Shown here piece after piece: positions 17,318 to 57,412 of a DNA stretch of 64,000 nt (positions are counted from its first letter, which is position 1; every line of letters begins with the position of its first letter). The stretch comes from Geosiphon pyriformis uo1. Lineage: Eukaryota; Fungi; Glomeromycota. The notes under the pieces were generated by a model, which was not told the DNA's origin, did no database searches, and was given only the letters and a program-made list of their open reading frames with translations. The stretch spans positions 618,346 to 682,345 of the forward strand of contig JAAOMT010000239.1 of NCBI GenBank assembly GCA_016748015.1, written 5' to 3'. The translations under genes and the position numbers were made by a program.

Positions 17318-18178
17318 TGTTACTCATAAAATATAAAAAGTATATTAGCACATAAATTAGCCAATCAAAGGTAAATGTAGTAAAATATAGAATTTCAGGA
17401 TTCCTTTTAGAGAAATTGCAGGATTCTAGAAATTTCAGGATTTTCATACAAAGAATTGCAGGATTCTAGAATTTCAGGATTTCTTTTAAAGGAATTACAG
17501 GATTCCAAAAATTCCAGAATTCTTGGTGTAAAAAATTGAAGAATTAAGAAATCTTAATTATGTATATATAGTAATAGTATTAGAAGTAGAAAAAACAAAC
17601 CTCTCAGTTTAGATTTGATCTAAGCAATCTTTTTATTCCCAAATATCAATAAATAATTATTTACTATCTTAATCTATTTTCCACTATCAATACTTTATGT
17701 TAATAGCAATTGATACTTAAAACCCACTGGAACAATAACTCTTGATTACAGCTATTGACAGAATATTAATATTTATTGCCTTGATTTATTTTTTTTATTT
17801 TCTTTTATTTTCTTTTGTTATTTTTTTTTGTTGTTTACTAATTGAAGTTAAAGAGTAAAGCATTAAGTTATTGACATCATAGATAGCTTAGTAAAAGACT
17901 CAGAAATAAGGGTAGAATTATATATATATTAATGGATAACTTACCAGAAAAACACAACTGCTAGATTAAACTGGCCACTATACTGAAAACAGAAATTGGA
18001 AAAACGACTTGAAAGATCAACCAAAACTAATCATAGTAAATTTTTGTCTATTATACAAAAAATTCAACCAAAACTTTCAAATCACAAAAACTTTTAGAAA
18101 CCAACATTATTATATTAATTGAGCACCAAGTTATGGGTTTGTTATTTGCTTTGAGACCCCAAATAATCATTTGTAACA
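17318..18178 (+). repeat. 5' LTR of A (family Y, 861 bp)
   Basis: TGTTAC...GTAACA termini; homologous to 44705-45584 (-) and 49797-50673. Confidence 0.9.
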
Positions 18179-18180
18179 TT

Positions 18181-18197
18181 TGGTGCTTCCTGTAAGG
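18181..18197 (+). promoter_or_regulatory. Primer-binding site of A (TGGTGCTTCCTGTAAGG)
   Basis: TGG two nt after the LTR end; same PBS type in C and D. Confidence 0.8.
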
Positions 18198-18242
18198 TAT
18201 AATCCTACAGAGAACCAGCACCAATACAACAATAATCGAAAA

Positions 18243-21200: not shown

Positions 21201-24196
21201 AAGAAACCAATGACAACACAGAAACTAACAGTTGGGAAAGATTATACTCTACAGATACCAGACCAGAACCACTTTATATTCCTCTTAGGTGCAAAGACTA
21301 CAAGAAAAAACTGTCTTTTATGGGAGCTTGAGTCATGTCAGATGAAGATTACTGAACAAAAATCTATTACTACTGCAAACCATGTTATTATGAATGCTAC
21401 AGTTATCCTAAAAAACAAGGCAAGTGAGACAACAAACTATGTCTCACTTGTGACAAACAATTACTAGATGAAGAAATATGGAATAACATTTCTGAACAAG
21501 AAGAAACATGCGATGCTTTATGTCAGTACACAATCTTTATAAGCGACTGGATTAGTCATGGAACACCCATTATGGCAGCCTGACACCAAACAATCTTTTG
21601 CTTGGACAGTTACCCACATGATAAGAACAAGATCTGACAAATGGCAAATGCCAAAGTCAAAGACACTTTGTCTAATGAAATTTTAAAGATCAAAAATAAC
21701 TTACCTAAACCAGTCAATATTGTTTTAATTCCCAATCCAGATGCTTTTCTAAACATTGAAGCAGACCCAAAAAAATTCCATAAGCACTACCAGAATCTAA
21801 CACTTACTAGAAAAAACAAGAGCAAAATTTAAAAGAAATAAACACCCAACTATGTGACCACTGTTTGATCTCATATAACTTTTAATATTGTAATAAGTGT
21901 GACCTCATTTACAATCTACTATCATGCATAATCTACACAATCCTAGAAGAGGAAAAACCAATTAATAGCTACACATCAGAATCAGAATTATAGTTCAATC
22001 CTGATTCAAACTCTGACAATAATAACAACAAAAATAATGGTTCCAGCTCTGTACAAAATAACAATAAAAATAACAACAATCCAGACTTCAATTCAAACTT
22101 AGAACAATATATTGTGCTTCCTGACCTTACCAAGAAACAAGAACTTAAATGGTTTAGTGATAATAATAAGAGCATCATACCAGAACATATGTATGATACA
22201 GATACTGAGTTTGATCTGAAATATCTAAGAAAAAATACTATCAAGTTGGAACCACACTCATGTATCTACATTGATCTTAAAATAGCACTGGAAATCTCAG
22301 CAACAACAATAGTTCAATTAGCATCTAGGAGTGGTTTAGCGAAAAAAGGAATTAACATTAGAAGAGAAATAATTAATACAATATACATAAAAAATATCAT
22401 TATAATACTACAGAATGATTCAAAAAAGGTCTATATTATAGAGCCAAATAAAAAGATAACACAGGCAATATTCCTGCTTCTGATTAAAGTAGCTCAATTA
22501 GTGTTAATAGAAAAAAGAGAAGAATTAAGAATGACAGTTAAAAGGATACAGGAATTCGGATCCACAAGTAGAATAAATGTATCAGTTAATATGATAGAGG
22601 AAAAAGTTATTAACAAGAGAGAAATTATCTCCAACTATCAATCAATTTCTATTTCATCATATAACCAGTACATATTAGCCATAGAAAGAGAAGTAAAAAA
22701 TCAAGCTCAAATTTTTGAAGCAGAAATTACTATGTGTAAATCAGAAAAGATAGGACTTACTAATCTTTACATATTAGCCAAAAACCCAAAACATATAAAA
22801 ATTCTTATCTATAACACAACAGAAGATGTTTTTGAGATACCAAAAAGAACTACCATTGGATATTTAAGCACTGAAGTTGGAGAACAATCACCAAATTCCA
22901 TTTCAAACTTTTTACAACTGTGTGAATATGTGGATATTACATCACAAACAATATACAGACAAAAAAAATGTTATTTGCTCCAATTAGAACAATTGGAACA
23001 GATGAACTTGAGAAATCTAGACCCACTACAATGTATATAGCTTAAGATATTATTTAACAACTTCAATGACATCTTTGCCAGTGAAAATGAATTTGGCAAA
23101 ACTAATATTATCTAGCATTAAATAAAAACTGAAGATGTAATGCCAATTAAGCAAAGAACATACTGAGTACTACCAGCCAGCCATGAAATCATTCATCAAG
23201 AAATCAATCAGATGCTAAATAACAGATTAATTCAGCCATCAATGAGCCCATAATTATTATCAGTAGTACTAGTTCATAAGAAAAATAGAAAAATCCACTT
23301 TTGTGTGGATTACTGAAAACTGAATGGAGTAACAAAAAAAGATAGCTACCCAACTCCAAAGATCCAAAAACTTTTTGATGCTTTTGGAGGAAAGAAATAG
23401 TTCTCAATATTAAACTTAGAAAGTGGTTACTGGCAAGTAGCCATGAAATCAGAAGATAAAAAGAAAATGGCTTTTACAACATAAGAAGAGAATTTCGAAT
23501 TTAAGATTATGCCATTTGGTTTGATAAATGCTCCCACTATATTTTAACAACTTATGAAAATAGTCTATACTGGACTGTTATAAAAATTAGTAGTCGTATA
23601 TCTGGATGACACCAATGTATTTTCCAAAACATTCGATGATCATTTATATCATCTTCAACAAATATTTGAAAGATTAAGAAGAGCTGGATTAAAATTAAAT
23701 GCAATTAAGTGTTTCTTTGAAAAAACTGAACTCAAGTTTTTGGAACATGTTGTAAGCAAAGATGATATCAAAACAGATCCAGACAAGATTAAAGTAGTCA
23801 AGAACTTTCCAGTATCAACCAACTTGACATAACAAAGAGCATTCTTAGGATTTGCTAGATACTATTGCCATTTTATCAAAAATTTTTCTAAGATGGCTTA
23901 GCTATTACACTAGCTTCAATCAAAAAACACCAAGTATGAATGGACAGAAAACCAGCAAAAAGCTTTTAATATATTAAGAAGAAAGCTTATTCAAGCTCCA
24001 ATATTAATGTATCTAGATCACAGCAAATTATTTATCATTCCTACCAATACATTAGACCAAGCATTGGGAGCAGTACTATCACAGAGAAGACTGAATGGAA
24101 AAAAACATCCAATAACATATGCCAGTCAAAGTTTGAGTCCAGTGAAAAAGAACTATAAAACACCAGCATTAGAACACTTAGCAATCTATTGGGCAG
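18243..24196 (+). pseudogene. Degraded gag-pol of A: N-terminal extension, CA, CCHC, protease, Cys module, dUTPase (~22140-22570), RT, start of RNase H
   Basis: KLILNSRSA (decayed DSG), DTEFDLKY/LASRSGLAKKGI/QEFGSTS, YLDD at ~23600, YASQSLSP. Confidence 0.85.
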
Positions 24197-25054
24197 TGTT
24201 ACGGGATGGTTTTCTTGTTATATTTAATTGCTGATATCCCGCTTTAATTGCAATCAGTCTTTCGTGAGTTCCTCAATTCTATTTGTGTGATAATGTTACT
24301 GTTACACTGAAGGCTTTCTTTTTACTGTTGCAATGTAAGTTATTTTTTAATTCTTGATTGTTGTGTGTGTTTATGTACTCCTTCTCAGAGGCTGAACTGA
24401 AATCTACCCACTGTCTGAGGTCTTCTCTGAGGCTATCCTTGCAATTGCCTGATGTGTTTCTCTAATCTAGAAACACAGAATGTTAATGGTCTTTAGCGCT
24501 TTTCTAATTCTCACAATAAAGCTTTTATCAATTAGTAACAATGTGAATAATCTTGATCAAGGATTATTCTTCCAAGGGTTTCAATTGATGAATGATAATT
24601 TCATTCAATAAATAATACAAGTAAGTTTCTTAATACTTTGGGTTGTGATAGTTCAGTTTTAAATATTTCTTTTTGATTTTTAAAGGTTTCTTGGGATATT
24701 TAATTTGAAAGTATGATTTAAAGTGGAGTTTGTTGGATAAAATTGGATCTATTGCTTGATAAGTTATGATTTTTATTACTTGATTTTTTTATTTCCCAAT
24801 ATTAAAACTACTATATATATACATGTTTGTAGTTCTACGAGAAAATACTTTCTTTTTGATATTTCAACCTGGTGTTTGCTGCTATCACCAGTTGGTGTTG
24901 ACTGCTATTGTGAACTGGTGCTTGCCACTATCGCGAGATGGTGTTTGCTACTATGTTAATCATTACCTTTCTAAGATTATTACTGTGCTATATTATGATT
25001 GAATAGTTTGTATTATTTTTATGATTCTTTTTTCTAAATTCTTAAACTGTAACA
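24197..25054 (-). repeat. 3' LTR of B (858 bp)
   Basis: TGTTAC...GTAACA; PPT (GAAAGGAGGAGA on the minus strand) at 25058-25069. Confidence 0.95.
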
Positions 25055-25095
25055 TTATCTCCTCCTTTCAAGATTGAGCTCCGTCGAAATCGAAG

Positions 25096-25422
25096 TTAAT
25101 TTCTTATGTATTGGATTATGTCTGAGCTCATTTTTGGCCAATAGTAACGGCTAGTTGCACGTTGAATGGTTGCTGTTTTTCCAAAGTGGCCTGAATGAAT
25201 ATCTGAGTGCATGTTAAATAAGATAGTTTTTTTTTCATCCGTGGTTATAACTCTTAATGAATTATCTGGATTTTGTCGATTCTGGTAATAAAGTATGTGA
25301 TTTTGGATGAAATAGTGTTTTGCTAATTTTTGGAGCTTAATTAGCTCTTTTACTGGCATTTCTTCGTTTATTTGTAGTGTTTCCAAGTATTGGCTGAGGT
25401 TTTTGTAAAGGTGGTTGTTCAT
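25096..25422 (-). pseudogene. Truncated integrase of B (N-terminal zinc-binding part only), separate ORF
   Basis: MHSDIHSGHFGK..YYWPKM; fused directly to the pre-PPT sequence. Confidence 0.85.
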
Positions 25423-25451
25423 TGTTGTTGTGGCGGGTGGATTGGTGATTT

Positions 25452-28400
25452 TTATGTGTGTCTCATTCTTGACAAACAGTCAGCATTAGCATTTTTGGTA
25501 TCTTCTTTGTATTTGATAATATAATCGTATGGTGCTAACGTTTGTGACCATCTGGCGTATTTTCCTTTTAGCGCTTTTTTGTTATTTAACCAGACCAGAC
25601 CTCTATGATCTGTCATAATCTCAAAGAGTTGGTACCGTAAATATGTGTCAAAGTGAACACAACTCCAGACTACTGCTAAGCATTCAAGTTCATGTGCTGC
25701 ATAGTTTTGTTCTGCCGTACTGAGACTTCTGCTGGCATAAGCAATTACACGTTCTCTTCCATTATCATCTTTTTGTGACAGAATGGCTCCAAGTCCAGTT
25801 CCAGAGGCATCTGTGGCCAAAATGAATTTCTTGTTGAAATTCGGATAGATCATTATTGGTGATTCAATGAGCTTTTGTCTAAGGTACTCAAAAGCTTTTT
25901 GTTGTGCTTCAGTCCATTCAAACTTCACATTTTTAGATAGTAGGTAATTAAGGGGTTTGGCGATGTTTGAAAAGTTTTCTACAAAGCGGCGATAGTAAGA
26001 TGCGAGTCCTAAAAAGCTTCTAACTTCTGAGACGTTTCGAGGTACTGGAAAATTTTTCACTTTGTCTATTTTTGATGGATCTGGTTTTATTCCATCTTTT
26101 CCAACTACGTGTCCTAAAAATGCTAGCTCATTTTTCCCAAAGAAACATTTTTCTAGATTTAGTTTAAGTCCAGTGTGTCTCAATCTCTCAAAAACTTGTT
26201 GTAAATATTGGAGATGATCCGTGAATTTTGACGAGAAAACATTTGTATCATCCAAGTAGACAACAACGGANNNNNNNNNNNNNNNNNNNNTACCTTTCTA
26301 AGATTATTACTGTGCTATATTATGATTGAATAGTTTGTATTATTTTTATGATTCTTTTTTCTAAATTCTTAAACTGTAACATTATCTCCTCCTTTCAAGA
26401 TTGAGCTCCGTCGAAATCGAAGTTAATTTCTTATGTATTGGATTATGTCTGAGCTCATTTTTGGCCAATAGTAACGGCTAGTTGCACGTTGAATGGTTGC
26501 TGTTTTTCCAAAGTGGCCTGAATGAATATCTGAGTGCATGTTAAATAAGATAGTTTTTTTTTCATCCGTGGTTATAACTCTTAATGAATTATCTGGATTT
26601 TGTCGATTCTGGTAATAAAGTATGTGATTTTGGATGAAATAGTGTTTTGCTAATTTTTGGAGCTTAATTAGCTCTTTTACTGGCATTTCTTTGTTTATTT
26701 GTAGTGTTTCCAAGTATTGGCTGAGGTTTTTGTAAAGGTGGTTGTTCATTGTTGTTGTGGCGGGTGGATTGGTGATTTTTATGTGTGTCTCNNNNNNNNN
26801 NNNNNNNNNNNTCAGGATCCATTGTTCCAATGTTTAATTTGGCCAATTCTTCTGGCGTAAATTGATAGCATTCTACTGGTTGTTGCCAATTTATTGAAGT
26901 GAGTTCAAAGTAGAGGGCAATTTCTGGGAAATTTAGAATTTCTTGTGGTGTTGACACGTTTTCTAGCTCCGTTCCGAGGTATCCAATGATGGTATCTTCC
27001 GGAATGTAGACGGGTTCTTCTGTGGTGTTTGTGATAGGAATTTTTATCCATTGAGCTTTATCAGCTGGAATAAAAAGGTTAGTAAGTCCTATGAAAAACT
27101 GTTGGCAAGTTTCTGGGTAGGGCTCAAATATTAGGTCTTTTTCTTTAATTGTCCTTTTTATTCTTATTTCTGATTTTCCATATGGTAGGAGCGTGATGGA
27201 CCACTCATTTTTAATTACTTCGCCTTTTTCCCCTATTGTTTCAGCAAAATTTGCTTTAATTCCTTTTCCTGTCAATCCGAAACAAAAGTTCCTCTCGTTG
27301 TTTGTGACAATTCCTCACAATTTTCCACTGACACGAATTTCCCAATTTTTACCAATGGTAAGAAAATTGCTTGTGCAATCTTTTCCTTAGATTCAATAGT
27401 ATAAGGCTTTTCTGAATTGTTCTGTAGCAAAACCATCAAATTTCCAGTGTATCCGGAGTCAATTACTCCTCCTTGAACGCTTATTCATTTTTTTGCGAGG
27501 CTTGATCGCGACGCCATTTGAACCATTATTCCTGGCGGAATTTCAACTGCTATTTTTAGGTCGATTTTGGTGATGCTCCTGGGTGGTAACGTTGTGGATT
27601 GGTCTTTCGGATAACGTAGATCGAATCCGGCGTCAGTTGGATGGGCTCTTTCGGGTATTATTCCTAAGTGCCCGTTGTTGAAGTATCAAATGTCGGTCAT
27701 CTGTTCTAGGTCGGTATAGGCTACAAATTTTTCTGACTCAGGACCGTCAGGTGAGTCTTGTTGATTTATTGATTGATTTTGAGACTGTTGATTCTCAATT
27801 TCCATTTTTTTTTCTAAGTCTCTTTCGTCTTGACACTCTTCACAGCACTGACTTTGGCACGGGATGAGACAGTTTTCGCAGAGGTAAGTGTTGATTTGGG
27901 CGAGATATTGTTCTTGCTCTTGTCGAGTGGGGCATAGTTGTTGGTAGTAGTCCTGGAATTCATCCACTGGGTCGAACATGTTGTAGCTGGCGACTTCATC
28001 GGCTACTTCGGCTGACTTTTTCCAACGTCGTATTTCTTCGGCGGTTCCTCCTCTTACTTTGGCTTGTGCGGTGTACAACTCGTCCTCGTCGTGTGGGTAG
28101 TGCTGTAGTCTTTTTAACGCTCTGTTGAACGCTGCTTCGAATGGCATTCCTCCTCTTACTCAGTCACAGATGAGGATTGTGTATTGGCAAGTTGCGTCAC
28201 ACGTTCCTCCTCTGCCTGGTAAGTCGTTCCAGTTGCACCCTCTTGGTAACGGTTCTCCACAAGCGAGGCACGGTTCCTCGTCCCATTTTCCGTGTCTTTC
28301 TGGGTAACCGTATTTTTCTTTGTTACAACGGTTACAATAGTAGTGGGTGGGGTTTCTTGGGTCTTCGTCCGGTGCACTGCACGCAGTCATAAACGAGAGT

Positions 28401-31200
28401 TTCTTCTTGCAAACCGAGCATTCTAGCTTTGGTCTGCGTCGCTGGTGGTTTCTTCGTGAACTTACCTGGTTCTATTCAGATCTTTCTTCGCTGGTCCACG
28501 TTGGTACGGCTGGTAGTCCTGTTCTTTGGTCATCAGCCCAAGAGAGCTGATAGGTTTCGATGGCTGGTAGTGCTGGATTTTCCTCAAATTCGAAGGTAGG
28601 TCTTTGGTTGGCACTGGGTTTTTGGAAGTGGCCACAGGTGGCTGGAATTTTGGCCTGGTGGCCATTATAATTGATCAGAAGCTCTTGGGTGGTCCAGTCT
28701 AGGGTGGCGTTGGCTTTTGTTAGCCAGTCATTCCCTACTAACACTTGATATTGTGTAGCGTCCATTACTAATACTTTTGTAGGTATTACTATGCTGTTAA
28801 TTTCGAAAGGGAATGAGTCGATTTCGCCATAAGGCAGCTTTGTACTTCCATCGGCTGTTATGATTTGGGACATCGTGGCACGATCAACTTTGAAACCCAG
28901 TTGGTTTACTAGTTGAAACGTTACGATGCTTCCAGCGGATCCACTGTCTAAGATAAGTTTGATTGGGGTATTGTTTACAGTGGCTTCCGTATACATAGCA
29001 GTGATTGGGCGTTTTTCGTCCAATGCTGCTCCACTGAACATAGTCTCATTTTCCTCTAATTCAAAAGGAAAAATAGCTGCGAGGCTGCTATCTTCGGTGG
29101 CAACTGCTGGTGGTATTGTCTGGCTCAATTTGGAGGAATTCTTGGTTCTGTTTATGTTTCTACCATCATTGTTTCCGATGATCAGGTTTTCCGGTATATT
29201 AAGGTAAATTTGTTGATAATTTTGGTAGTTTGGATTGGTTTGCTGATTGGTTCCGGCGCAGTTTGGATTCCTCTGGACCAACGCGTTCTGGTTCCACATG
29301 GGCTGATTTCGGGCCTCAGGATGCCAATTCGGGTTGGCTATCATGGGCTGTTGCTGGTAAGCTCCTTGATTTTGATACATGGTGAGATATTGGCATGGTA
29401 TTGGCGTGTACTGGTTTCTGGGCATTTGGGGTGGCGCATAGTAATTATTTTCGCGTGCTTCCTGCATCATTCGCGTTCGACATTGACTAATCAAATGTCC
29501 TACGCATTTGCAAAAATGGCAGGCGCGTGTTTCTGTTCTGAATTCCTGGCGCGACAAGCAATTATTTCAACTGTCACTGACTTCCTGGCTGCGTCTTTGG
29601 GGTGGTTGGTATGTATTTTTTCTCGGATCCGGGATGAGGTAACTTTCTATTTTCTTAGAGAGTTTCTTCCCTAATCACGTTACTCTTTTCTCTAATGTTT
29701 CTGTCTTATTTTCCTCCATTACCATGTTAACCATTTGACTATGGTTAGCTTCTTTCTCAGCCGATTCAAGGGCTCTGGCGAGCGTAACGGCTTCTGGTAA
29801 GGAATTAGGGTGGGCAGGGCGTACTCTTCCTAAAATGCTGCTTTTTAATCCTCTAATAAACTGATTTAAAACCTGAGGATCAGTGTAGTATCCTTGTTCA
29901 ATCGCTTCAATCTGACGGCGAATTCGATTGAATCGAGCAAGGTATTGGGTGACAGTTTCACTGGTATTTTGCTTGATAGTATTGAATTCGTTCTGTAGTT
30001 GNNNNNNNNNNNNNNNNNNNNNNNNNNNNNNNNNNNNNNNNNNNNNNNNNNNNNNNNNNNNNNNNNNNNNNNNNNNNNNNNNNNNNNNNNNNNNNNNNNN
30101 NNNNNNNNNNNNNNNGCGAAGCTCGTGGGTTTTGTTTCCAGGCTTTGATACCACGAGTCGGCTGTGCCTTTCAGGAAGAAAGGTAATGTTTGAATTGCTC
30201 TTTGGTCATTCTAGTTATTTGCCTGGATGGCTTTTTGTGCTTCTCTGAGCCATGTGTGCACGTCCGTTTCTTCTTCCTCTCCTGAGAAATCTGTTAGTCT
30301 TGTAATGTATGGTGTGGTCATTTCGTTGCCATTTTCTGCTGGTGGGTTTATTGGTCTAAGAGGAGGTGGGATGATATTTCCTTGAGCGTTCCTAAAAGTG
30401 GCTTCCCTTATATCCGGTTCTTCCTCTTGATCACAAATTTCTTGGTTTCTGGACTGGCTGCTTGTTCCAGTGACTGGTCTTGTGATTGTTTTTTCGCTGG
30501 TCTCTTTTTCGGATTCTGATTCAGACTCCTCTTCATGGTTTTCAAACCCCATTCTAAATTTTGGCTGAAAAAGAGGGTTTTGGAATAGTGATGAATATTC
30601 TCCTGTAATTAGTATGTCTCCCCAGTTACGTTGTTTAATTTTATCAATATAACTAGGAGTTCTTGGCATTTGTGGAGTTGATGTTGATGATGATGCAGCT
30701 CCTAATGGAATTTGTATCTTATTTTCTGGTGAAAAATGGTATGATTTATCTTCTGGTGAATAAATACATTGTTTCTTTATTGATTGAGTGACAGTTTTCT
30801 TTGGCGTTTGAGCTGGTGTTCCTAGTTTTTGCTGGTTACTTTCCTGATTAGTTTCTAAATTTTCTTTGGTTTTGTTGGCGCATTCCCTAGTGTTTCCTGT
30901 GAATATTGGAAAATTTTTGTTGGCGTATTGCTCAATTTCTCGATGGATTTTGACAATAGTTGCAGCTATTACTGCTACTTCTTTTGTAGTGTATTGTGAT
31001 AATTTTCTATACAATCCAAGTTTTGTGTCATATGGTTCTTCTTCCTTTCCTATATGATAATTTATTCTGGCATTGATATAATAAGTGAGGGCAGATTCTG
31101 CTGGACAACACCCTTCTGGTAATCCAAGATCACTTTGATTTTGTGTGTAAATAGCATGGCAGAATTCAAGAACAGTAAGATTAGGGGTTTTTGTTGCCAC
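25452..31200 (-). pseudogene. gag-pol of B: CA, CCHC, protease, Cys module, dUTPase (~27290-27685), RT (partly in gap), RNase H
   Basis: CHFCKCVGHLISQC in frame with KLILDSGSAGS; AHPTDAGFDL, SRSSLAK, GGVIDSGYTG; YLDD; LATDASG, YASRSL, ADCLSRM. Confidence 0.9.
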
Positions 31201-31263
31201 TTTTGTCTTTTCCTTTTTAGCAATGAATTATTGCTAATTATTATTTCTTTTTTGATTTTCTTT

Positions 31264-31280
31264 CCTCATAGGGCTTACCA
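31264..31280 (-). promoter_or_regulatory. Primer-binding site of B (TGGTAAGCCCTATGAGG)
   Basis: TGG two nt inside the 5' LTR end; differs from the A/C/D PBS. Confidence 0.8.
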
Positions 31281-31282
31281 AA

Positions 31283-32020
31283 TGTTACGGGATGGTTTTC
31301 TTGTTATATTTAATTGCTGATATCCTGCTTTAATTGCAATCAGTCTTTCGTGAGTTCCTTAATTCTATTTGTGTGATAATGTCACTGTTACACTGAAGGC
31401 TTTCTTTTTACTGTTGCGATGTAAGTTATTCTTTAATTCTTGATTGTTGTGTGTGTTTATGTACTCCTTCTCAGAGGCTGAACTGAAATCTACCCACTGT
31501 CTGGGGTCTTTTCTGAGGCTATCCTTGCAATTGCCTGATGTGTTTCTCTAATCTAGAAACACAGAATGTTAATGGTCTTTAGCGCTTTTCTAATTCTCAC
31601 AANNNNNNNNNNNNNNNNNNNNGTTTTAAATATTTCTTTTTGATTTTTAAAGGTTTCTTGGGATATTTAATTTGAAAGTATGATTTAAAGTGGAGTTTGT
31701 TGGATAAAATTGGATCTATTGCTTGATAAGTTATGATTTTTATTACTTGATTGATTATTTCCCAATATTAAAACTACTGTATATATACATGTTTGTAGTT
31801 CTACGAGAAAATACTTTCTTTTTGATATTTCAACCTGGTATTTGCTGCTATCACCAGTTGGTGTTGACTGCTATTGTGAACTGGTGCTTGCCACTATCGC
31901 AAGATGGTGTTTGCTACTATGTTAATCATTACCTTTCTAAGATTATTACTGTGCTATATTATGATTGAATAGTTTGTATTATTTTTATGATTCTTTTTTC
32001 TAAATTCTTAAACTGTAACA
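31283..32020 (-). repeat. 5' LTR of B (contains an N gap)
   Basis: Direct repeat of 24197-25054. Confidence 0.95.
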
Positions 32021-32699: not shown

Positions 32700-34067
32700 C
32701 TACGTTTCAATGATGATGATTGGTTCCAGATTTCGTGGTATATCTTCTGATCTGATTAATAAAATTTGTGTTCCTAGTTGTGGTACTGATGACAATGATT
32801 CCTGTTTTACATGATAAATTTTTAACCAATTTCCATGCACTACTTTTTTTAAAATCCTGTCTTCCAATCGTAATTTATAAGCTTCATTTCCTAATGCTTC
32901 GTGTATGTGAAATAGACTGTTCCACTTTGGGTCAAACTTTTCATTCCACTGTTTCTCAGCTTTTGTATGATGTAATAATACTTGGTCTCCAATCTTGAAT
33001 TCCATTGGTTGTTCTGATAGGTGTTTATTATGTCTTTCTTTTTGTCGTTCTTGAACATGACTAATATTGTCAGCTGCTGTTCTTTGATTGTTTTCCAATG
33101 TTTCCATTAGCTGGTACATTCTTTGGTATAAGGTAGCCTCAAAATTCTCTTCATTGATTGTTTCCGTTGGATATGACGGTATCACTTGTTCAATCAGTAA
33201 CGTAGCTTTTCTTCTATAGACTAGTTCGAACGGTGTGAACTGAGTCGTATTTTGTTTCAATGTTCAGTATGCAAAGAGTACAGAAGGTATGAATAAGTCC
33301 CATTCTTGTCTGTTTTCATGACTTATTTTTGCTAGTGCTTCACACAGTGTTCTGTTAAACCATTCTACCAGTCCATTCATTTGTGGGTGGTATGGTGATG
33401 ATAAGAGTCTCTTTATTCCAAACTGTTGGCTTAGTTCAGTCAGCATATTATTAACGAAGTGTGTTCCCTAATCAGATAATAATTCTTTCAGACATCCATG
33501 TTGGCAAATTAGGTCTTGATGCATAAATTCGGTGACTGTTTTGGTGTCGGCCACTTGGATTGCTTTGGCTTCTGGCCATTTTGTAAGATAGTCTACAGCT
33601 ACAGCGATATAGCAATTTCCTTGGAATGTAATTGAAAGAGGTTCAACCAAATCGATCCCAATTCTATCAAATGGATTTCCAACTGGAATGGGTCGAAGTG
33701 GTTCTGTTGATCTTGCTCCTCCTTTTCGCTGGCATGTGTCACAATTGAGCATGTATTCGAAAATGTCTTTGTGCATCGTTGGCCAATAGTATAAGTTTAG
33801 TGTTCTTTTGAGGGTAGCGTCTTTGTTAAAGTGTCCTGCAGTCGGATTTGAGTGCACACTATATAGTATAGTTTCTCTTTCACTGTCTGTGATTAGTTGC
33901 TGTGGATTGGGGTGGTTTTGGCATTCTCGTCGATATAGTTGGTTGTCTTGAATAAAATAATTTCGGGCTTGTTTTTATATGGTACTCTGTTTTTGTTGAG
34001 ATAATATCTCCTTGAAACATAGTGTTGATAGGTACTGATGTAGTCATTGATAAGTGAGTGTGTCCAT
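32700..34067 (-). pseudogene. Integrase of C, separate ORF
   Basis: H..GHF/CDTC zinc-binding motif, GIDLV, LLSD, YHPQMNGLVE; decayed GPF module; no chromodomain seen. Confidence 0.9.
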
Positions 34068-34077
34068 GGGTCTGGGA

Positions 34078-37000
34078 TTAGGTTTGTGGCATTCTTGACA
34101 AACTGTTGGCATTAGTGTTCTTGGATCTTTTCTTGTAATGGACTTTGAGTGGGAATTGTTGCAGATAAGTACTCCATCTTGCATATTTTTTTTCTAGTTG
34201 TGGATTGTTGAGTAACCAAATAAGTCCTTTGTGGTTGGTATATAGGTCAAATGGTTAACTAAGGTAATGTTTCCAAGTCTGTATGGCCCAATAAATGGTG
34301 AAACATTCCAGATCTGTTGTGCTGTAATTTTTTTCTGCTGGGCTAGTGCTGCAACTAGCATAGGCAATTGGGTGTTCTCTATTGTCTGGTCCTATCTGTG
34401 ATAAGACTGCTTCTAGAGCATTTTTCAAGGCATCTGTAGCAACAATGAACCATTTAGTGAAATCTGGGTAAATCAGGATTGGGGATGTAATCAATTGCTG
34501 CTTGAGATAGTCGAATGCTTTCTGTTGATCTTCCTTCCACAAGTATGGTACGTATTTAGACAACAATTAATAGAGTGATTTTGTGATGTTCGAGAAATCG
34601 ATGATAATATCCTGCTAATCCTAGAAATCCTCATAATTCTCTGAGGTTGATTGGGGCTGGAAAATCCTTGACTTTTTGTACTTTATCTGGATCGGGTTTA
34701 ACTCTGTCCTTGCTGATTACATGTCCTAGGAATTTTAACTCAGTTTTTCTAAAGAAGCACTTCTTGGGATTGAGTTTTAATCTGGCACTATGAAGGCATT
34801 CGAAGACTTGTTGCAGGTGGAGCAGATAGTCTTCAAATGTTTCGGAGAACACATTTGTGTTGTCTAGGTAGACTACTACTGATTTCCAAAGAATTCTTTT
34901 GTATACTACATCTATCAGGCGTTGAAACATGGCAGGAACATTACAAAGTCCAAAAGACATTACATTAAACTCGAAGTTTCCGTCTCGAGTGGTAAACGCT
35001 GTTTTTTCTTTGTCTTTGGGGTTCATTTCAACTTGCCAGTAACCACTTGCTAAATCTAATAATGAGAACCATTTCTTTTTCCTTAGATTGTCCAGAATTT
35101 CTTGGATGAAAGGAGTGGGATAACTATCTCTTTGCATGACACTATTTAGTTTTCGATAATCTACACAGAATTGTACTTTTCCATTTTTCTTGGTGACCAA
35201 GACTACTGGCAAAGACCAAGGGCTTAACAATTCTTTAATTAGGCCATTATCAAGCATCCGTTGCACTTCTTGCTTAATTAGGTTATCGCCAGATGGGAGT
35301 ATGTGGTAAGCTCGTTGCTTAATTGGTCGAGCATCTCCTGTATCAATCTGATGCTTCACGATGTCAGTGAGTTCGAACTCATTTTCACTGGCAAAGACAT
35401 TGGCATACTAATTCAGAAGGACTTTGAGTTGCATTTGTTGCAGGGTACTTAAATTTCCTAAATTCAATTTATTGATCTCTTCTGGTGTGAACAAGTAACT
35501 TTCTTTTGGCAAATTCCATACTTGTAAGGTAATGTCACAGAATAAGAATAATTGTGCGAAATCTGGAATGGACTGGAGTTTTTCAGGATTCTGATTATCT
35601 GCAGATATGGAACCGACGAGGGTCTCTTCAGGGATTTTAATGACATCTTCTGTCGGATTGTAGATGGGGATTTTGAAGTGTTTATGGGCTTTGGCTGGTA
35701 GGTATAGATTAGCAACATCGGCTAGAGAACAGATTTTGGGACTGGCTTTGAATAATAGGGCTTGATCTTAGATCTTTCAATTCACCTTGAGAATGTATTG
35801 TTAGTATGAAGGAATAGAGATAATGGTGTCAGTGTGGATAAATTCTATCTGGTCACTGTTTTTTTCCATAAAATTAACTGGTACATTTCCTCTTCCACTT
35901 GATCCAAATCTGTTGATTCCTTGGGCAGTGAGACCTAACTCTTCTCGGATTGTTACCGAGGTTAATTGGAGTATTTTGACTAAGAGTAGGAAGATAGTTT
36001 GGGCAATCTTTTCTTGTGATTCTATTTTGTAGGGTCTGTTCAAATTGTTCTGTAGCATCACGATGATGTTTCCTGTGTAACCAGCATTGATAATTCCTCC
36101 TTTTATGTCGATTCCTTTCTTGGCTAGACTAGATTGAGAGGCAATTTGTACCATTGTACTAACAGGAATTTCTAATGCTATCTTACAATCTATTTTTACG
36201 AGGGAATATGGGACTATAATAATGGGTAATTGTCTGGGGTATTGTAGGTCAAAACCGGCATCTGTATTATATGCTCTTTTGGGGCAGATTCCTTCCTCGT
36301 TGTCACTATACCATTTTAGCTCTAGTTTTTTGGATAGGTTGGAATACGCGAGATACTGTTCTGTTTCAGTATCCTCAATTGGATCTTGAAACGACATGTC
36401 CACAGTGATTAATACCTCTTCTTCGGGTTCAGGTAGTTCAGTGATTGGAAACAGTATTCTTGGAAGCGGATTAAACATGAGATCACATTTATCACAGTAC
36501 TAGAAGTGACAGGGAATCAAACAGTAATCACATAGTTTGGTATTCAAATTGGCCAACCTTTGCTCCTGTTTCTCATGAGTTGGGGCCAATTCCTGATATT
36601 GGTTTTGAAATGCGTCTGGGTCATCTGTGAAGAAATCATCCTCAGGGTAGTCAGGTTTAGTATATTCAGGCATCCAAGAGTTGTCCTTAATTTCTTGTAT
36701 TTCTTCGAACATGGTGCCTTCGGCCTTGGCACTTGCCATTCTCCAGATTTTGTGGTCATTGTGTAGATAACTGTCTAGTCTGTTGAGTGCTCATTTCCAA
36801 GCGTCCTTGATGGAGATTCCCTTTCATATCCAATCATTAATTAATATGGTGTATTGACAAGCCTCGTCATATGTTCTTCCTCTGCCAGGCATATTATTCC
36901 AGAGTTCTTTATCTGGCAGGATTTCGCCATATGCAAGGCACGACGTGTGGTCCCACTTGTCTTGTTGTTTTGGTCATCCAAATCTTTTCAGTAAACAAGG

Positions 37001-39835
37001 CCTGCAATAATATTTAGTGGTGGTGGGCCATTCTTTGTTGTCCCTGATACATGTGTCTATAATGGATAGTTTTTTTCCACAATTGATACATATTAGTTTT
37101 GGAAGTTGGTAAAATAAGTTTCTTTGGTCTGAGGTTACATATCCTAGTGATGATGATTGGGGTTCTTTTTCAGCTCTGCCTTTTTCTTTTTCTTCCCAGA
37201 TTGGTGGTGGGGGTAGTTCAGTTCGATAATCATCTGTTCATGAAACCTGATAGGTCTCGATGGTTGGTGGCATTGATGTGTCTTCGAATTCAATAAAAAG
37301 TTTCTCGGTATGTTGGTTTTTAAAGTGTCTGCACATAGCTGGAACTCGGGCATGCTGTCCGTTGAACGTGAGTTGAAGTTCTTGGGTGTTTCAGTCAAGA
37401 ATAGTATTGGCTTTTGACAACCAGTTGTTTCCTACTAGAGCTTGATATTGAGTAGCTTCCATGACAAGTACTTTGGTAGGGATTTGGATTCTATTAATCT
37501 CGAAGGGAAAGTTGTCAATTTCTTCTATCAGGGTTTTTGTGTTCCCATCTGCTGTAATAATCCAAGTGGTAGCAGCACAGTCTACTCGGCGACCTAGTTG
37601 GTCCATGAGCTGCTTCATGATTATGCTACCAGCTGATCTGCTATCCAAGATTAATTTAATGTCTATTCCTCCAATTCTGGCATCAGTGTATAGGGCCATT
37701 ATTGGTTTATCCTGATTGATGGCTGCTCCACTAAAAAGGCTATGTGTATTCAAATTATTGATGTCAAAAAGAAATATGGCAGCTAGGGTGGTGTCTTCGG
37801 TAATAGTAGCTGGTGGGATATTGCTTTTTGTTTGCTTGGAAGGTTGGGAGATTTGTTCTATATTCCCTCCTTCCACAGATGTAGATTTATCAAAACCCTG
37901 GTCTTCTATAAGACCGAGATAGGAAGCTTGATTCGGGTATTCAGTTGGTGTTGGTCAAGATTGGGCAAGACCACAAGAGATTGGTCGAGACGGTCCACTA
38001 TTGGTTTGCACCTAATTGTTATTGGGATTCCTCTATTCCTGATTATAGTCTATAGCTCGAGGTTTGGACGGGCTGTAAGGGGAAGTTTGATAGTGAGAGA
38101 TTGCTTGTGTTATTGGTGGTGGTTGATAATAATTCTGGGACAGTGGTTGAGTGTACAGGACTTGTTGTGTATATAAAGGCAGTTGATTCTGAAGTATGAA
38201 ATATTGGGGTACCATGTTTTGCTGATATCTGGGTTGCTGATATGGGTTTCCTTGATTTTGGTTCATGATCTTCCTTCTACAGTCATGGACAATATGTCCA
38301 AGTTTCTGGCAGTAGTAGCAGTTGCAGGGATCAGATCTCCAAAGTTGTTGCTGTGGGTATCTGCTGTTGTTGTTATTATCTTTCCGTTGGGGTGGTTGGT
38401 AAGTTCCTGTAGTTCTGGCTAAGAATCCCTCAATTTTTTGAGTTAGTTTCTCACTCAATTGGGTTATCTTTGCATTGATGTCAGAAGTTCTATTAATGGC
38501 TAAATTAATGGCTTGGGTATGGTTCGCTTCTTGTTCTGCAGACTCAAAATCGCGAGTAAGAGTGACAGCATCTTGTAAACTGGTCAGATGGCGGGGTTTT
38601 ATGGATCTTAGAATACTACTCCACAATCTTTTAATGAATTAATTAAGAACTTGCGCCGTGGTGTAGTAGTCCCTTTTAATAGCTAATATTTGACGCAGGA
38701 TTTGATTGAATCGTCCGAGATAAGTAGTTACTGCTTCATAATCTTTTTGTTTAATTATGCTGAATTGATTCTGCAATCGGATTAACGTATTGGGATCACA
38801 GAAGTATTGCAGAAATGCGAGTTTAAACTCAGTAAAGGAGGTAGGCTTCTCTACCAGGCTTTGGTACCACGAATTGGTGGTTCCAGTCAGAAAGAACAGC
38901 AGTGCCTGAACTGTGCGGTTGTTGTTCCAACTGTTAGTGGTAATTGCTTTCTTGGCATCCATGATTCAAGAATATGCATTATCTTCTTCACCAGAAAATT
39001 TTTCCAATTTAGCAATATCTCAGTAAGCCATGATTTGGTTAATGAGTGGGGTGTTACTGGTTATGTTTAAAGGGATTGGTGTCCACGTATTCGAGTGTTC
39101 TCTGGGTGCTAATGCTGGTTGCTTTCCTTTGTCGCTTGAACCAATAGGTTGTAAGATAGCTGTTTCTTCTGTCAGGGGAGATGCTGATTCTGCTAGGTTT
39201 TGTGTTGGTGGCTGTTCCCAAGTTGACGGGTTTCCTTCTGTTTGACTGGCTGCTGGGGTAAGATTTCCAAACAGCAATCTGTATTCTCCTAGTGATTTGG
39301 TCCAACTGTGTTGATTCCAAGGGTGTGGATTTCCAGGAGTTCATGGTGTTTCCGACTGGGTTTCCAGGAGTGGGTTGAATACAATTCTACTTTGGGGTGT
39401 CTGATGGTATAATGGAGTTGTTGGGAAGAGAACCCTTGATTTCTTGTTGACTGTGGACTTGGCTTGAGCAGTTACGGGGTTGTTGAATTTGTTTTCGTAT
39501 TCCTCAGGGTCGGATTCTACTGGTTGTTGTACTTGAGGGAATCATTGTGCCACGTAATATTTAATGTCTGTATCAATTATGCGCAGAGTTTCAGCAATTG
39601 CTTGGGTAGTCGTGGCTGTTGAGTACCCTAATAAGCTTTGATGGATTTGTTCTCCAAGTCTTTCTGTATCAGTTGTGCAGCCTAACAAGCAGTCAATTTT
39701 TGTGTTGATATAGTTACAAAAATCACTTTCTGCGTAAGCAGTTCCTGCTGATATTCCTAGATCTTTTCAAAAGTATTGAAATAATGCTTTTCCATATGAG
39801 GAGTGGTCTTTTCCTATTGTTCTAATAGTCACTAC
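34078..39835 (-). pseudogene. gag-pol of C: CA, CCHC, protease, Cys module, dUTPase (~35890-36320), RT, RNase H
   Basis: CYYCQKLGHIVHDC; KLILDSRSAGS; TDAGFDL, SQSSLAKKGI, GGIINAGYTG, FGSSG; LDLASGYWQ, YLDN; VATDA. Confidence 0.9.
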
Positions 39836-39897: not shown

Positions 39898-41530
39898 TAT
39901 TATGGGTAAACTTGGTAGGTATGGGAAATGGTAACGTTTGGTGCTCTCAATTATTGATGATGTATCTTCTGCGTAATTCTGTTGGCTTAGTCTTGATTAT
40001 CAGTCTCTGAAGGTCTATTCCTAGATGTGAATTTTACCCGTTAAGTTCTTTGGTTATAAGGCACAGAGTTTGTCTTTTGTCGATTGCAACGTTTTTCATA
40101 AATGTGAGCTTTCTTCTCTGAGCTAACAAGTGCAGTCGTTAGGGTTTGGCATTGTCTTTTCGCCCTTCTAGTAAGCTAACAAGATAATGTTAATATCCAA
40201 AACTTAGGGAGAACTTCTCTCTTTTACCAGACTATTACAAAGTCTATTCCCAAATAGTCAATTTTACTATGTTGCCACTCCACAAAAAAATAAGACAGAA
40301 AAAGAAAAAAAAAGAAAAAGAAAAGAAAAGAAAAGAGAGAAAAGATAAATTAATATTGTCAATTGCCATAATCAAGAGCAATTGGTCCAAATCGTTAATA
40401 GGTTTGAGGTGGTTATGCTAAGAGCATCTGTTCTAGAATGGAGATATGAGACAAGGGTTAATTCACATAAATTCCACAAAGTTCGAGAACATGAATTCAT
40501 GATTCTGATTTCTTTTAATAATTGGTTTATTTCAGGAAATGAAATAGGGAAGATAATAAAGGATGAAGGAGTATAGATATTTTAATTTCTGGTTTAGAGG
40601 TTTGTATCTATTTTTTTTTCTCTGTCTTTTCTCACTTCTACAACTACTTGCTTTTATACATTCTTTTGGTTTTACAGGATTGCTTTCAATTGTCTCACTA
40701 TTGCTAGCTATTGCTTTGTTGTTTCTGTTATTGCTTTGTTTTTCTACGTTATCGCTAGTTATCCTATGTTATAACATGTTATCTGACGTTATTACATGTT
40801 ATTCTGTATTATCCTGTGTTATAACACGTTATCCTACATTATTGCACACTATTCTGTGTTATTCTGCATTATAACACGTTATCCAACGTTATAATGCATT
40901 ATCCAATGTTATTGCATATTATTCTGTGTTATGTCACATTTTGGTCACGTTTCTTCATAACTTTGGATCGGTTTTTCTACTCGGGTAACACTGTTTAGTA
41001 GGAATTGGTTAATTTCAAAAGGGAAATAATTAAAGATTTGATTTTTCAATTTATTTGATATTTATTTTGTTTTTGTGTGTAAAAGATGATTCTCAAAATT
41101 AAATCTGAAGTAAGATATATTTTCTCGAAGAGAGAAGCTCTTCTTTTATACAACTTGTCATAACACTATTTTATGAACTTGAACTTTGCTCTTTTCTACA
41201 ATTTTGCTAAACTAAAGATACATTTCAGTGAACTACAAGTTATTTCTGTGAACTATTAGATATTTTGGTAAACTATCAATTATTTCGGCAAATTTCTACA
41301 AATTTCAGTGAACTTTTGAATATTACATATTTTGGGGTATTGTATGATTGATCATTGCACTTAGGTTATATTTGTGTTATGTACAAATTGAGTTATTAGT
41401 TAACTGATAATTTCAGACATTTTGCTAATGTAATAAGTGATGATTTGAAACGATAATATATGCTAATTAATGATAAGATTTATAAGGATAATTTCATGCT
41501 AAACAATATCTCTAATTTTGTCTGGTAACA
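39898..41530 (-). repeat. 5' LTR of C (about 1.6 kb if the X-like segment 40965-41530 belongs to it)
   Basis: Starts next to the PBS; GTAACA termini at both 40990 and 41530. Confidence 0.7.
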
Positions 41531-46220: not shown

Positions 46221-46843
46221 GTAGGATTAGTCTCTTACTATTAGAAATTCATCAAAGGATTCTCAGAAATTGCCAAACCACTCAACTATCTTACCAATAA
46301 AAACGTGCCATACCAATGAACTGAAGAACAACAGAAAGCCTTTGACACTTTCAAAACAAAATTGACAACAGCTTCAGTTTTTGCTTACCCAGACTTCAAC
46401 AAATGGTTCCAATTAGCCATTAATGTCTCACACATAGCTTTTGGTGCCATTTTATCACAATTAGATAAAAAGGACCAAGAATAAGTTATTGCTTATACCA
46501 GCAGAACACTCAAGCCAACAAAACTCAAATATGGCTCAACTAAATTAGAAGCTGCCACAGTCATTTGGGCTCTCAAACACTTTCAACAATATCTGAAGAA
46601 TGGAAAAAAGTTTGACATCATAACTAATAATATTGGTCTTAAATGACTCAATAAAAAGAAAACTGAACAAAGTGCCAAATAGTCTCAATAGAATGATTTC
46701 TTAACAGACTACAAATACATTGTACACCACAAACCAGGAAAACTACACATCAATGTTGATAGTCTCTCAAGAATGAGACAAGATTAACACCACCAACAAT
46801 TCTATTACAACTTATCATTACTAACAAAAACAGCAAAACAACA

Positions 46844-48208
46844 ATGAATCTCAGAAATTATACCAATTTTAAAAACTATTTGGAGACTTTTACCATGTTA
46901 GAAAATTGGTCTCCAAGTAAAAAACATTGATTACAACAACAATCCAAACAATATTTTATACATTACAACAAAATCTATTACAAAAATTGCAAAAACCCAA
47001 ACCAACCACTCAGATTAATACAGGAAAATGAAAAAAAAAACAATTCTATACAACATGTACACAGATCCTTTTTTAGCACATTTGAGAAGAGATGGAACCA
47101 TCCAAAAAACTCTTGAACATTATTTTTGGCTCCACATGCAAAAAAACATTTGACAATATGTAGAATTTTGTGATAGTTGTCAAAAAAGAGAAGGAATTTG
47201 TTCCACAGAACCTTTAAATCCAATCAAAGTTGGACAACCTTTTGACAGAGTTGAAATTGATTTAGTCAGACCATTACCTATCACAACTTAAGAAAATCAT
47301 TATATTGCAGTTGCAGTAGATTATCTCACCAAATGGCCTGAAGCTAGAGCCATCCAAAGAGCAGATACAAAATCAATAGCAAATTTTATCTATGAAGACA
47401 TTATTTGTAGACATGAATGCCCAATTGAACTTTTATTTGATCAAGAAACACATTTTGTAAACAACTTAATACAAGAAATTTGTGAACAATTCAATGTCAA
47501 AAGACTTTATCATCATCTTATCACTCTTAAACAAATGAACTTGTAAAACATTTTAACAGAACATTGTGTAAATCTCTAGCCAAAGTCTCAACAGATTTTG
47601 AGCAGAAATGGGATATCTTTATTCTATTAGTGTTACTAGCATACAGAATACTAAAACAAGATACTATGAAACACACATCATTTGATTTAACTTATAGAAA
47701 GACAGCAATATTATTAATTAATTTCACAGTAAAAACATACTCTGGGCAACCAATTAATAAAGAGAACTTTTAAGAAACACTCCAAAAAAGGGTCTACACT
47801 CTTCTTAGTACACTGGAAGAAAAAAAAAAGATAGCAGCAACTCATATTGAATAGTTTCAAGCCCAACAAAAAGAAAGACATGACAACAAATTACCACTCA
47901 TTACCAACAAATTTAAAGTTAGAAATAAAGTTTTCTTATACAGAACTAAGGCTGAAAAACAATAGAGTGGAAAATTTGAAAACAAATAGGATGGACCATT
48001 TTATATTTATGAAATTCTAGACAATGAATTATATAAGTTAAGACTTGATAACAAAGTACTAGCATAAGTTGCACATGGAAATAGATTGAAACACTATTAT
48101 TCCAGAAACAATCCTGAACCATTAATTCCACAAATTGGTATACATTCTCCTTTAGTTAATCTTGAAGATATTTTCCAAAATTTAGAACCAATAATTATAA
48201 TAGAATAA
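46844..48208 (+). pseudogene. Integrase of E, separate ORF
   Basis: ATG 46844 after the RNase H stop at 46785-46787; FCDSCQ, IDLV, YLTKWPEA, DGPFYI. Confidence 0.85.
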
Positions 48209-48379: not shown

Positions 48380-49022
48380 ATGATTATTCCCCGAAATATT
48401 CAACAAATATCCCAAAAATTAATATTAGCCTTAAAAACACTTCCTGACTTATCCATAACAATTAATGGAAGTTAAATTAACCCCTATAAAAGAAAAACAA
48501 GAAGACACTCTGAAAATAGGTTACCAAAACTTTTAAAGCAAGCACTGAAAGAAAACTTTTTAACTGCCTCTATTGACATTCCACCAAATGCCACAATTCA
48601 ACAAAAACTTTTACTATTTCTTAATGAACAGAACAATAAATATACCCTTATATATAAATATTTTCATATTAGAAAAACATTTTATGAACGAAAACTTAAA
48701 CTTGAAGCAACCAACATTACTCTTAAGGCCATACAAAAATAAATTCAAGACAACAGCTGGATTAACAAACACTTGCTACAAACTTAGAGCAGCATTTAGA
48801 CTCTATAATTTATTCAACATTTGTGAAAACATCTTACCAAATCCAATACTCTATCCAATAAAAATTCAATACATTGGAAAGCTTACAGAACTGAAATTTC
48901 AACAATTTTCAGACCAGATTACTTCAATTATCTTAGACCACTATCTTAATATCACAGATAGTGCTTGGACTTCAATAGAGTTCAGTCTTGAAGAGGAGAT
49001 TATGTTACCAGTAGAATTTTAG
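48380..49022 (+). pseudogene. ORF3 of E, unknown accessory protein overlapping the PPT and LTR start
   Basis: Homologous to 58390-58804 (YKLRAA.RLY.LF.ICEN.L.NPI, KIQYIGKLTELKFQQFSDQI). Confidence 0.7.
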
Positions 49023-50709: not shown

Positions 50710-51697
50710 TGTTACCAGACAAAATTAGAAATATTATTTAGCATGAAATTATCTTATAATTCCTATTATTAATTAGCATATATTATCGTTTCAAATGATC
50801 ACTTATTACATTAGCAAAAATGTCCGAAATTATCATTTAATTAATAACCCAAATTGTACACAACACAAATATAACCTAATTGCAATGATCAATCATGCAA
50901 TACCCTGAACTATATAACATTCAAAAGTTTGCTGAAATTTGTAGAAATTCACCGAAATAATTGATAGTTTACCAAAATATCTAATAGTTTGCAGAAATAA
51001 CTTGTAGTTTGCCGAAATGTATCTTTAGTTCAGTGAAATTGTAAAAAATAGCAAAGTTCAAGTTTATAGAATAGTGTTACGACAAGTTGTATAAAAGAAG
51101 AGCTTTTCTCTTTAAGAAAATGTATCTTACTTTAGATTTATCACTTAGAACCATTCCTACACACACAAAAAGAAATAAAATATCAAATAATTTAAAAAAC
51201 CAATTTTTTTAAAATATTGCACTTGGAAAATCTCCAAAAAAAAAACCCAACTAACATTTTGAAATTGATTAGCTACCAATTTCAGTAAACTGTTAGTGAC
51301 TCCAGACCTGAATAGAAAAACGTTTTTCTTGACAAAATTCTATTTCTTTTACATTTCTTTATTTTTCTTTTCTTTTCTTATTACAATCATTTGGGTAGTC
51401 TACAGACAAGATTCCTGTAGAAGAGTTGACTTTCACAGCAAAATAACTACACATTTTTAGTGAGCTTCCAGACAAGCAATTCCTGGGAAAGAGTTGACAT
51501 TTACTACAATGTAACTACATAAAGCAACTGGTACGGAATTGGCCATTCCACTCATAAGCCCAGTAAGTTCAAATTATAAGAAATAATTTGAAGATAAATT
51601 CAGTTACTGGAGGTCCAACTACTTTCTGGAAACGTGAATTCACAACAAATTAACATTAACAACATTCGAGAAAAGAGACCAAAAACCTCCAGTAACA
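50710..51697 (+). repeat. 5' LTR of F (family X)
   Basis: Direct repeat of 58773-59760. Confidence 0.95.
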
Positions 51698-51743
51698 TTT
51701 GGTGCTCTCCCACGGAAACAACACAGCAAAAAACAACTTCAAA

Positions 51744-57363: not shown

Positions 57364-57412
57364 AAAACAAAACCAATACCCATTTGAATTAACAGCATCA
57401 AAACAACAAACA

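Follow-up and report, generated by a model that had tools for sequence, protein, structure and literature searches.

Being fused to Gag-Pol is the textbook way of dosing and packaging integrase (IN) in long terminal repeat (LTR) retrotransposons. DIRS and Ngaro elements encode the integration enzyme on a separate open reading frame (ORF). Here we describe the junction between RNase H (RH) and IN in Ty3/Gypsy-type LTR retrotransposons of the glomeromycotan fungus Geosiphon pyriformis, found in a 64,000-nt stretch of contig JAAOMT010000239.1 (positions 618,346 to 682,345, forward strand; hereafter the window, numbered from its first letter). In these elements and their readable relatives pol stops ahead of IN, which forms an ORF of its own with an aligned start.

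The closest described system is the Ty3/Gypsy group (Metaviridae), for example yeast Ty3. The window elements share with it the LTRs and the order of Gag, protease, reverse transcriptase (RT), RH and IN, and among solved structures the IN profile matches Ty3 Gag-Pol best (7q5b, E 1e-50). They differ in that IN is a separate ORF, that many members carry a third ORF (ORF3), and that the window families have a dUTPase. In the available sections of a survey of fungal LTR elements, pol is presented as a single polyprotein including IN (PMC3248453); this canonical arrangement was seen in 0/48 relative loci and 0/4 window copies.

Enzymes made apart from the capsid protein are described in the accessible part of PMC3705302. 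The whole foamy virus Pol, IN included, is made apart from Gag from a spliced mRNA; genomic RNA sequences are needed for packaging, and free IN is not packaged. The hepatitis B virus polymerase is also made apart from the capsid protein and is captured via the RNA stem-loop epsilon. Our elements resemble foamy virus in having an enzyme made without Gag, but in them IN alone is set apart, and a search of the spacers gave no conserved acceptor. The likeness of hepatitis B virus polymerase and epsilon to IN and the RNA element described below is an analogy only, IN binding being putative.

In stop/restart systems (SART1, Cryphonectria hypovirus 1 [CHV1], Helminthosporium victoriae virus 190S [HvV190S], and cauliflower mosaic virus [CaMV] with its TAV protein) the start of the downstream ORF lies at the upstream stop or close to it, and two of our loci have TAATG at this place. 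SART1 reinitiation requires an RNA structure downstream of the ORF1 stop, while CaMV uses an encoded transactivator (PMC10275272, accessible part). The motif-bearing loci among our relatives likewise have an RNA structure downstream of the upstream stop. In contrast, these systems are a non-LTR element and viruses, whereas here most spacers are 25–200 nt long, a Kozak context is conserved, and the structure has no Rfam match. DIRS and Ngaro retroelements occur in the same fungi and integrate by means of another enzyme (PMC13465315, accessible part), a tyrosine recombinase, and they lack true LTRs, whereas the enzyme described here is a DDE integrase.

No description of a split RH-IN clade was found in the literature searched, which did not extend to Repbase, supplements or subscription journals, where such families may be recorded. 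The accessible parts of the Rhizophagus irregularis transposable element paper (10.1101/2021.03.30.436303), the Glomhopper paper (PMC13465315) and a Ty review (PMC5911963) do not mention it.

The RH-IN junction in the window

A six-frame scan of the window yields exactly four RH end motifs, in the elements denoted B, C, E and F. Element A is cut within RH by B, and element D has no RT match, which leaves these four checkable copies. A 501-bp duplicate of the B junction was missed by the scan because an N gap cuts the motif. The junction coordinates in the first-pass annotation all hold:

25423..25454, (-): element B pol stop (25452-25454, after LSRMRHT) and 29-nt A/C spacer, with no AG in the spacer
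25096..25422, (-): element B integrase from ATG 25422, first 108 codons only (zinc-binding domain); remainder missing up to the polypurine tract
34078..34080, (-): element C pol stop TAA, after LSRMPQT, 3 codons past the RH end motif LSRM
34068..34077, (-): element C RH-IN spacer, 10 nt, C-rich
32796..34067, (-): element C integrase ORF, 423 codons, own ATG at 34067; IN profile 1-419, score 569
46785..46843, (+): element E pol stop TAA (46785-46787, after LSRMRQD) and 56-nt spacer
46844..48127, (+): element E integrase, own ATG at 46844, broken by stops and frameshifts
57361..57412, (+): element F pol stop TAG (57361-57363, after LSRMRQD) and 49-nt spacer
57413..58402, (+): element F integrase, ATA at the aligned start position 57413, C-terminal part missing

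In all four copies the pol frame stops three codons past the LSRM end of RH and an A/C-rich spacer follows, as had been reported. The aligned IN start is also borne out: an IN profile, made for the most part of intact relatives, has its first position at the ATG in C and E and its second at 57416 in F. The element C IN has four internal stops that result from decay; its HHCC motif, DDE motif and SH3-like C-terminal domain are present. Integrase_H2C2 and rve matches occur in the window, and H79, C109, C112, D199 and E235 are invariant across 95 IN rows.

Two of the earlier statements need restating. It is true that no spacer is a multiple of three (phases 2, 1, 2 and 1 in B, C, E and F), but this is weak evidence alone: its chance is (2/3)^4, or ~0.2, and 11/48 relatives have in-frame spacers. 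The signal proper is the stop plus an aligned start in every readable relative, not the spacer phase. To speak of four lineages overstates independence; what the window holds is three families within a single subclade. Over 1,606 nt E and F share 76% identity, and they are sisters (support 99), and all five RT-RH rows from the window form one subclade with locus L001 (support 96). Despite this kinship, the two are unlike in the length and phase of the spacer and in the stop codon used.

A small hairpin is predicted around CAAGAATG in the last 30 nt of pol, directly before the stop in B, C, E and F; it may merely reflect the SRM codons.

The split layout in relatives

A protein search with the element C IN returned 534 near-length matches. 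The best 120 are 359–438 aa long with 41–49% identity, and 119 begin with Met; the named relatives are Rhizophagus and Geosiphon proteins (Glomeromycota). Since such a search is blind to fusions, longer proteins were searched too. Among the 120 listed, the one close match that combines RT, RH and IN is P0124 (44% identity). Its sequence jumps from inside RH to inside IN, skipping the RH end and the IN start, as would a mis-spliced gene model. P0132 (54%, a Geosiphon protein, close to element C by eye) is a scrambled gene model without an RT domain. The remaining listed proteins have 26–39% identity, and many are plant and animal pols.

DNA context was taken from the best 80 of 588 metagenome loci (L numbers), chosen by IN similarity. 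The RH end was found upstream of IN in 49 loci, and 48 of these have a callable IN ATG. In 48/48 the pol stop lies before or at the IN ATG and none is fused; the IN frame is open for at least 380 codons in 40 of them. The apparent spacers of L021, L023, L038, L048 and L050 are long, a length that seems to be due to breaks in pol. The remaining 31 loci were left unscored; nine of them have more than 400 nt of upstream sequence without an RH match, probably reflecting a long C-terminal extension of pol in that subgroup. In L037 (3500-4441) and relatives, pol extends ~300 residues past RH; the extension is acidic, holds a Cys/His-rich block and has no Pfam match.

Intact members carry the same layout. 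In L017, L026 and L045 an unbroken Gag-protease-RT-RH frame of 1,605–1,849 codons is followed by a full IN ORF and then by a third ORF, and terminal direct repeats were found in five split loci (L014, L015, L018, L045, L050). No continuous RH-IN frame was found in intact relatives, and neither a slippery site nor a phase is conserved before the pol stop in the 48 loci. The stop and the separate start are ancestral, and the view that decay is an unlikely cause of the split stands.

A check independent of IN gave the same picture: a search with an RT-RH profile yielded seven clade proteins, and 7/7 have no IN after RH. Six of them end within 13 residues past RH, and one has a 316-residue extension. 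As multi-copy chimeric gene models prevailed among the RT profile matches, all 150 were rescored by best domain, and 33 entered the tree. No IN relatives and no match to the RNA motif were found in a collection of viral contigs.

The phylogenetic trees were made by a quick method or with FastTree and carry no bootstrap values. In them the split elements group as a single clade by RT-RH (support 97 with 40 rows; 91 with 47 rows, after 25 redundant or long-branch outgroup rows were dropped) and by IN (support 100, 88 rows). Fused pols lie outside it, P0124 excepted. The split clade is placed among fused Gypsy-type pols, in trees without named reference lineages. We conclude that the split is a confirmed ancestral variant of the Ty3/Gypsy plan and not a product of decay. 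It also suggests an explanation for host-like annotations of a lone 'integrase core domain', and intact elements of this kind may be scored as broken.

Recoding sites were observed elsewhere in these elements. A TTTAAAC heptamer at the gag/pol boundary, at the start of the pol frame in L002, L005, L015 and L047, is a likely -1 frameshift site. In L018, L022, L027, L032, L056, L064 and L067 (7/7) an in-frame TGA-CTA is conserved between protease and RT, after protease and not after Gag; we take it to be a readthrough-type context.

Start codon and spacer

The IN start was defined as the ATG nearest to the aligned IN start; context played no part in the choice. A purine is found at -3 in 68/72 IN starts versus 263/441 internal IN ATGs, and G at +4 in 66/72 versus 133/441. 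The second residue is Asp, Glu or Asn in 72/72 starts versus 108/441 internal ATGs. Met-Asp/Glu/Asn termini are substrates of NatB acetylation. ATGs are depleted in the spacers: 13 were counted in 32 loci (spacers of 10–210 nt) versus 31.6 +/- 4.4 in dinucleotide shuffles, with a minimum of 15 in 200 shuffles. Since related loci are not independent, these statistics are descriptive only. Judged from sequence, the IN ATG is a real start with an initiation-type context.

The distance from stop to start is -20 to +2 nt in 8/48 loci, which include the two with TAATG. It is 10–56 nt in the window and up to ~450 nt in the other loci. In L002, L004, L007, L014, L015 and L080, a subclade without the structured element described below, the spacers share words such as TTTGATTTAACCCAAC before the ATG and a repeated ACGGA.

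A structured RNA element before the IN ATG

A covarying element of ~40 nt, one copy per locus, lies on the sense strand directly before the IN ATG in 32/80 loci (e.g. L037:4455-4509). The covariance model was built from 28 of the 32 loci, so those match by construction. The element consists of two stacked helices (12 pairs) around a conserved purine-rich bulge, with a bulged A under a 3-nt loop. Across the 28 sequences 96.7% of cells pair, two-sided changes occur at 9/12 pairs, and covariation is 0.485; shuffling lowers it to 0.170, and sliding to 0.125 or less. RNAalifold arrives at the same structure. The element ends 0–14 nt before the ATG in 25 of the 27 loci measured, and in one at 32 nt.

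It is present in L047, in L013/L021 and in a large subclade with two R. irregularis proteins among its members; within its clade it is absent from L061, L069 and L044. Its distribution points to an element that is old, but dispensable because it is missing in three members of its subclade. The window families have unstructured A/C-rich spacers in its place, and the covariance model, applied at E up to 5, does not find the element in the window. A search of Rfam with 20 loci (E up to 1) gave no match for the element, and one unrelated weak MIR397 match elsewhere in L041. In prokaryotic genomes the motif pattern had one match, on the opposite strand within an unrelated gene of a Verrucomicrobia metagenome-assembled genome, which we judged to be due to chance. 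Readings of the element as a ribozyme, an iron-responsive element or an exonuclease-resistant RNA were dropped, as no matching core or pseudoknot was seen by eye. In this one subgroup the structure is a candidate signal for reinitiation or for IN capture.

ORF3

Many loci have an ORF of 130–200 residues downstream of IN; a profile built from 20 of these proteins matches 35/80 loci. In L017 (ATGA), L024, L054, L069 and L036 it starts -11 to +5 nt from the IN stop. No Pfam family matches ORF3. Its predicted model is helical and confident (pLDDT 95.6), and no fold match was found (none with Foldseek at E 0.001; best VIA Z 4.8); this does not prove a new fold. In element E, and partly in F, a decayed ORF occupies the corresponding position and is not matched by the ORF3 profile. 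Two loci have other proteins after IN: in L015 (6546-6944) the ORF ends in a helix-turn-helix domain, unlike other ORF3 proteins, and in L059 a 314-codon ORF with a Nudix-like motif (by eye) begins 43 nt past IN.

Expression and packaging of a separate integrase

That IN is expressed separately, as had been proposed, follows from the split layout. A large clade with intact members that lack the fusion implies that another route to dosing and packaging exists, and IN as a separate gene would need its own route into the particle. The likeliest route, to which we give an even chance, is that ribosomes finishing pol restart on the same full-length RNA to make IN. Gag-pol, IN and ORF3 would then be read as a polycistron from one genomic RNA by reinitiation, directly where stop and start overlap and otherwise after short scanning. 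A low yield would suffice, little IN being needed. The repeated coupling of stop and start at the IN-ORF3 boundary and the SART1 and CaMV precedents support such reinitiation. By analogy with foamy virus Pol and hepatitis B virus polymerase, IN would then likely enter the particle by binding the full-length RNA rather than through fusion to Gag.

Several observations weigh against restart after pol. The four window junctions have neither an overlap of stop and start nor the structured motif, and in each of them the IN frame stays open upstream past the pol stop, which the T-poor spacers make likely. ATG density is already lower over the final 60 nt of pol (0.94 per 100 nt, against 1.4–3.2 further up). 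In most loci with ORF3 beyond the five named above, the IN-ORF3 gap is 27–263 nt or more, and many of these gaps measure 50–260 nt. In one subclade (L018, L032, L056, L057, L064) the spacers are 190–450 nt long and hold 2–10 ATGs. The 48 junctions, furthermore, come from related loci selected by IN, so that their counts are not independent events.

For the subclade with long spacers an internal promoter fits better, and this is the main rival of reinitiation: a capped subgenomic RNA would begin close to where pol ends, ribosomes would reach the IN ATG by ordinary scanning, and the structured element would be a 5' leader signal. The strong Kozak context and the ATG-poor spacers suit ordinary scanning, and many spacers contain T-rich tracts. 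On the other hand, such a promoter does not need the overlaps of stop and start, seen in 8/48 loci and again before ORF3; with window spacers as short as 10–29 nt it would lie in the RH coding sequence; and another one would be required for ORF3. We regard it as possible but doubtful, and subclades may differ in how they express IN. Ribosomes entering the genomic RNA internally, by way of the structured element or an A/C-rich leader and regardless of termination at the pol stop, would account for a structure held so close ahead of the ATG in 25/27 loci with 9/12 covarying pairs. The element, though, is only ~40 nt long, is absent from 48/80 loci (some of which lack upstream sequence) and from the window, and is missing in L061, L069 and L044 inside its own clade, which leaves this reading improbable. 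Equally improbable is a spliced IN mRNA, like those of retroviral env or foamy virus pol, the latter being its precedent. The E spacer holds TACTAAC followed by CAG, and C and F have CAG ahead of the start, yet 8/36 spacers, that of B included, contain no AG. YAG trinucleotides (Y, pyrimidine) occur in 25/36 spacers versus 23.6 +/- 1.8 when shuffled, a branch point plus YAG occurs in 10 versus 9.4 +/- 2.2, and the CAG of the structured motif is swapped for CGG with a compensatory change in 3/28 sequences. No conserved splice acceptor was found before the IN start in the 36 spacers, to which the search was confined.

The two readings that would preserve the usual polyprotein, or dispense with the split altogether, fare worse. 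Programmed frameshifting or readthrough could join IN to Pol across the open frames of the four window copies, and recoding is used elsewhere in the clade. Yet spacer phases 0, 1 and 2 occur in 11, 21 and 16 of the 48 loci, a stop closes the IN frame before pol is reached in 37/48, slippery heptamers near the pol stop occur in 12/48 and are of mixed types, and even E and F are not in the same phase; at the sites of recoding elsewhere in the clade (TTTAAAC, TGA-CTA) the signal is conserved. This route is largely refuted on sequence grounds, and we hold it to be very improbable. Mutational decay, an assembly error or a mix-up with unrelated stand-alone integrases (Ginger, Polinton) might be invoked for the window, whose copies have many stops, frameshifts and N gaps, but the same split in L017, L026 and L045, with uninterrupted gag-pol and full IN, and in loci with terminal direct repeats has already refuted this reading, to which we assign next to no probability.

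A more elaborate form of restart after pol would be a polycistronic LTR retrotransposon family (gag-pol, IN and a small helical ORF3) in fungi of Glomeromycota type, in which ORF3 acts as a TAV-like reinitiation factor and the 40-nt RNA captures newly made IN for packaging. We consider this combination unlikely; if true, it would be a replication strategy undescribed for any LTR element. The split elements offer a natural system in which polycistronic translation in eukaryotes and the packaging of IN without a polyprotein can be studied. The structured RNA is a concrete target, and as R. irregularis proteins lie inside the motif-bearing clade, public RNA data could test it.

Other features of the window

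The window is AT-rich and is a nest of LTR retrotransposons. Pfam places Gag, protease, dUTPase, RT, RH and IN domains in Gypsy order on its ORFs, and the intact relatives, also scanned, have Gag, protease, RT, RH and IN in that order. The LTRs of elements B and F start with TG and end with CA; a purine tract precedes the 3' LTRs and TGG follows the 5' LTRs of the window elements. Further features are as follows:

17317..24197, (+): element A, same subclade as the other window elements, RH interrupted by B
24197..32020, (-): element B, LTRs 24197-25054 and 31283-32020, 98% alike
26291..26791, (-): 501-bp duplicate of the B junction between two N gaps, 99.8% identity
32067..32616, (-): element C 3' LTR, 89% identity to 39900-40443
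34081..39100 (5' end approximate), (-): element C decayed gag-protease-dUTPase-RT-RNase H region
39900..40443 (probably reaching ~41000), (-): element C 5' LTR, matched part
48450..49000, (+): decayed extra ORF downstream of IN in element E, partly also in F; position as ORF3 of relatives
50710..59760, (+): element F, LTRs 50710-51697 and 58773-59760, 93% alike; gag, protease, dUTPase, RT, RH and IN

Element B has a 4-bp target duplication (by eye); its gag, protease, RT and RH were placed by Pfam, and a dUTPase-like stretch was recognized by eye. The duplicate of its junction is likely an assembly artefact and was left uncounted.

By eye, a Cys-rich, zinc-finger-like insert lies between protease and dUTPase in B (27700-28470, -), C (36400-37100, -) and F (54350-55050, +); it has no Pfam match where scanned. 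The window also contains an ORF for a cellular-type RNase H, probably of a non-LTR element (2214-3017, -), and a protein kinase fragment (11946-12785, +).

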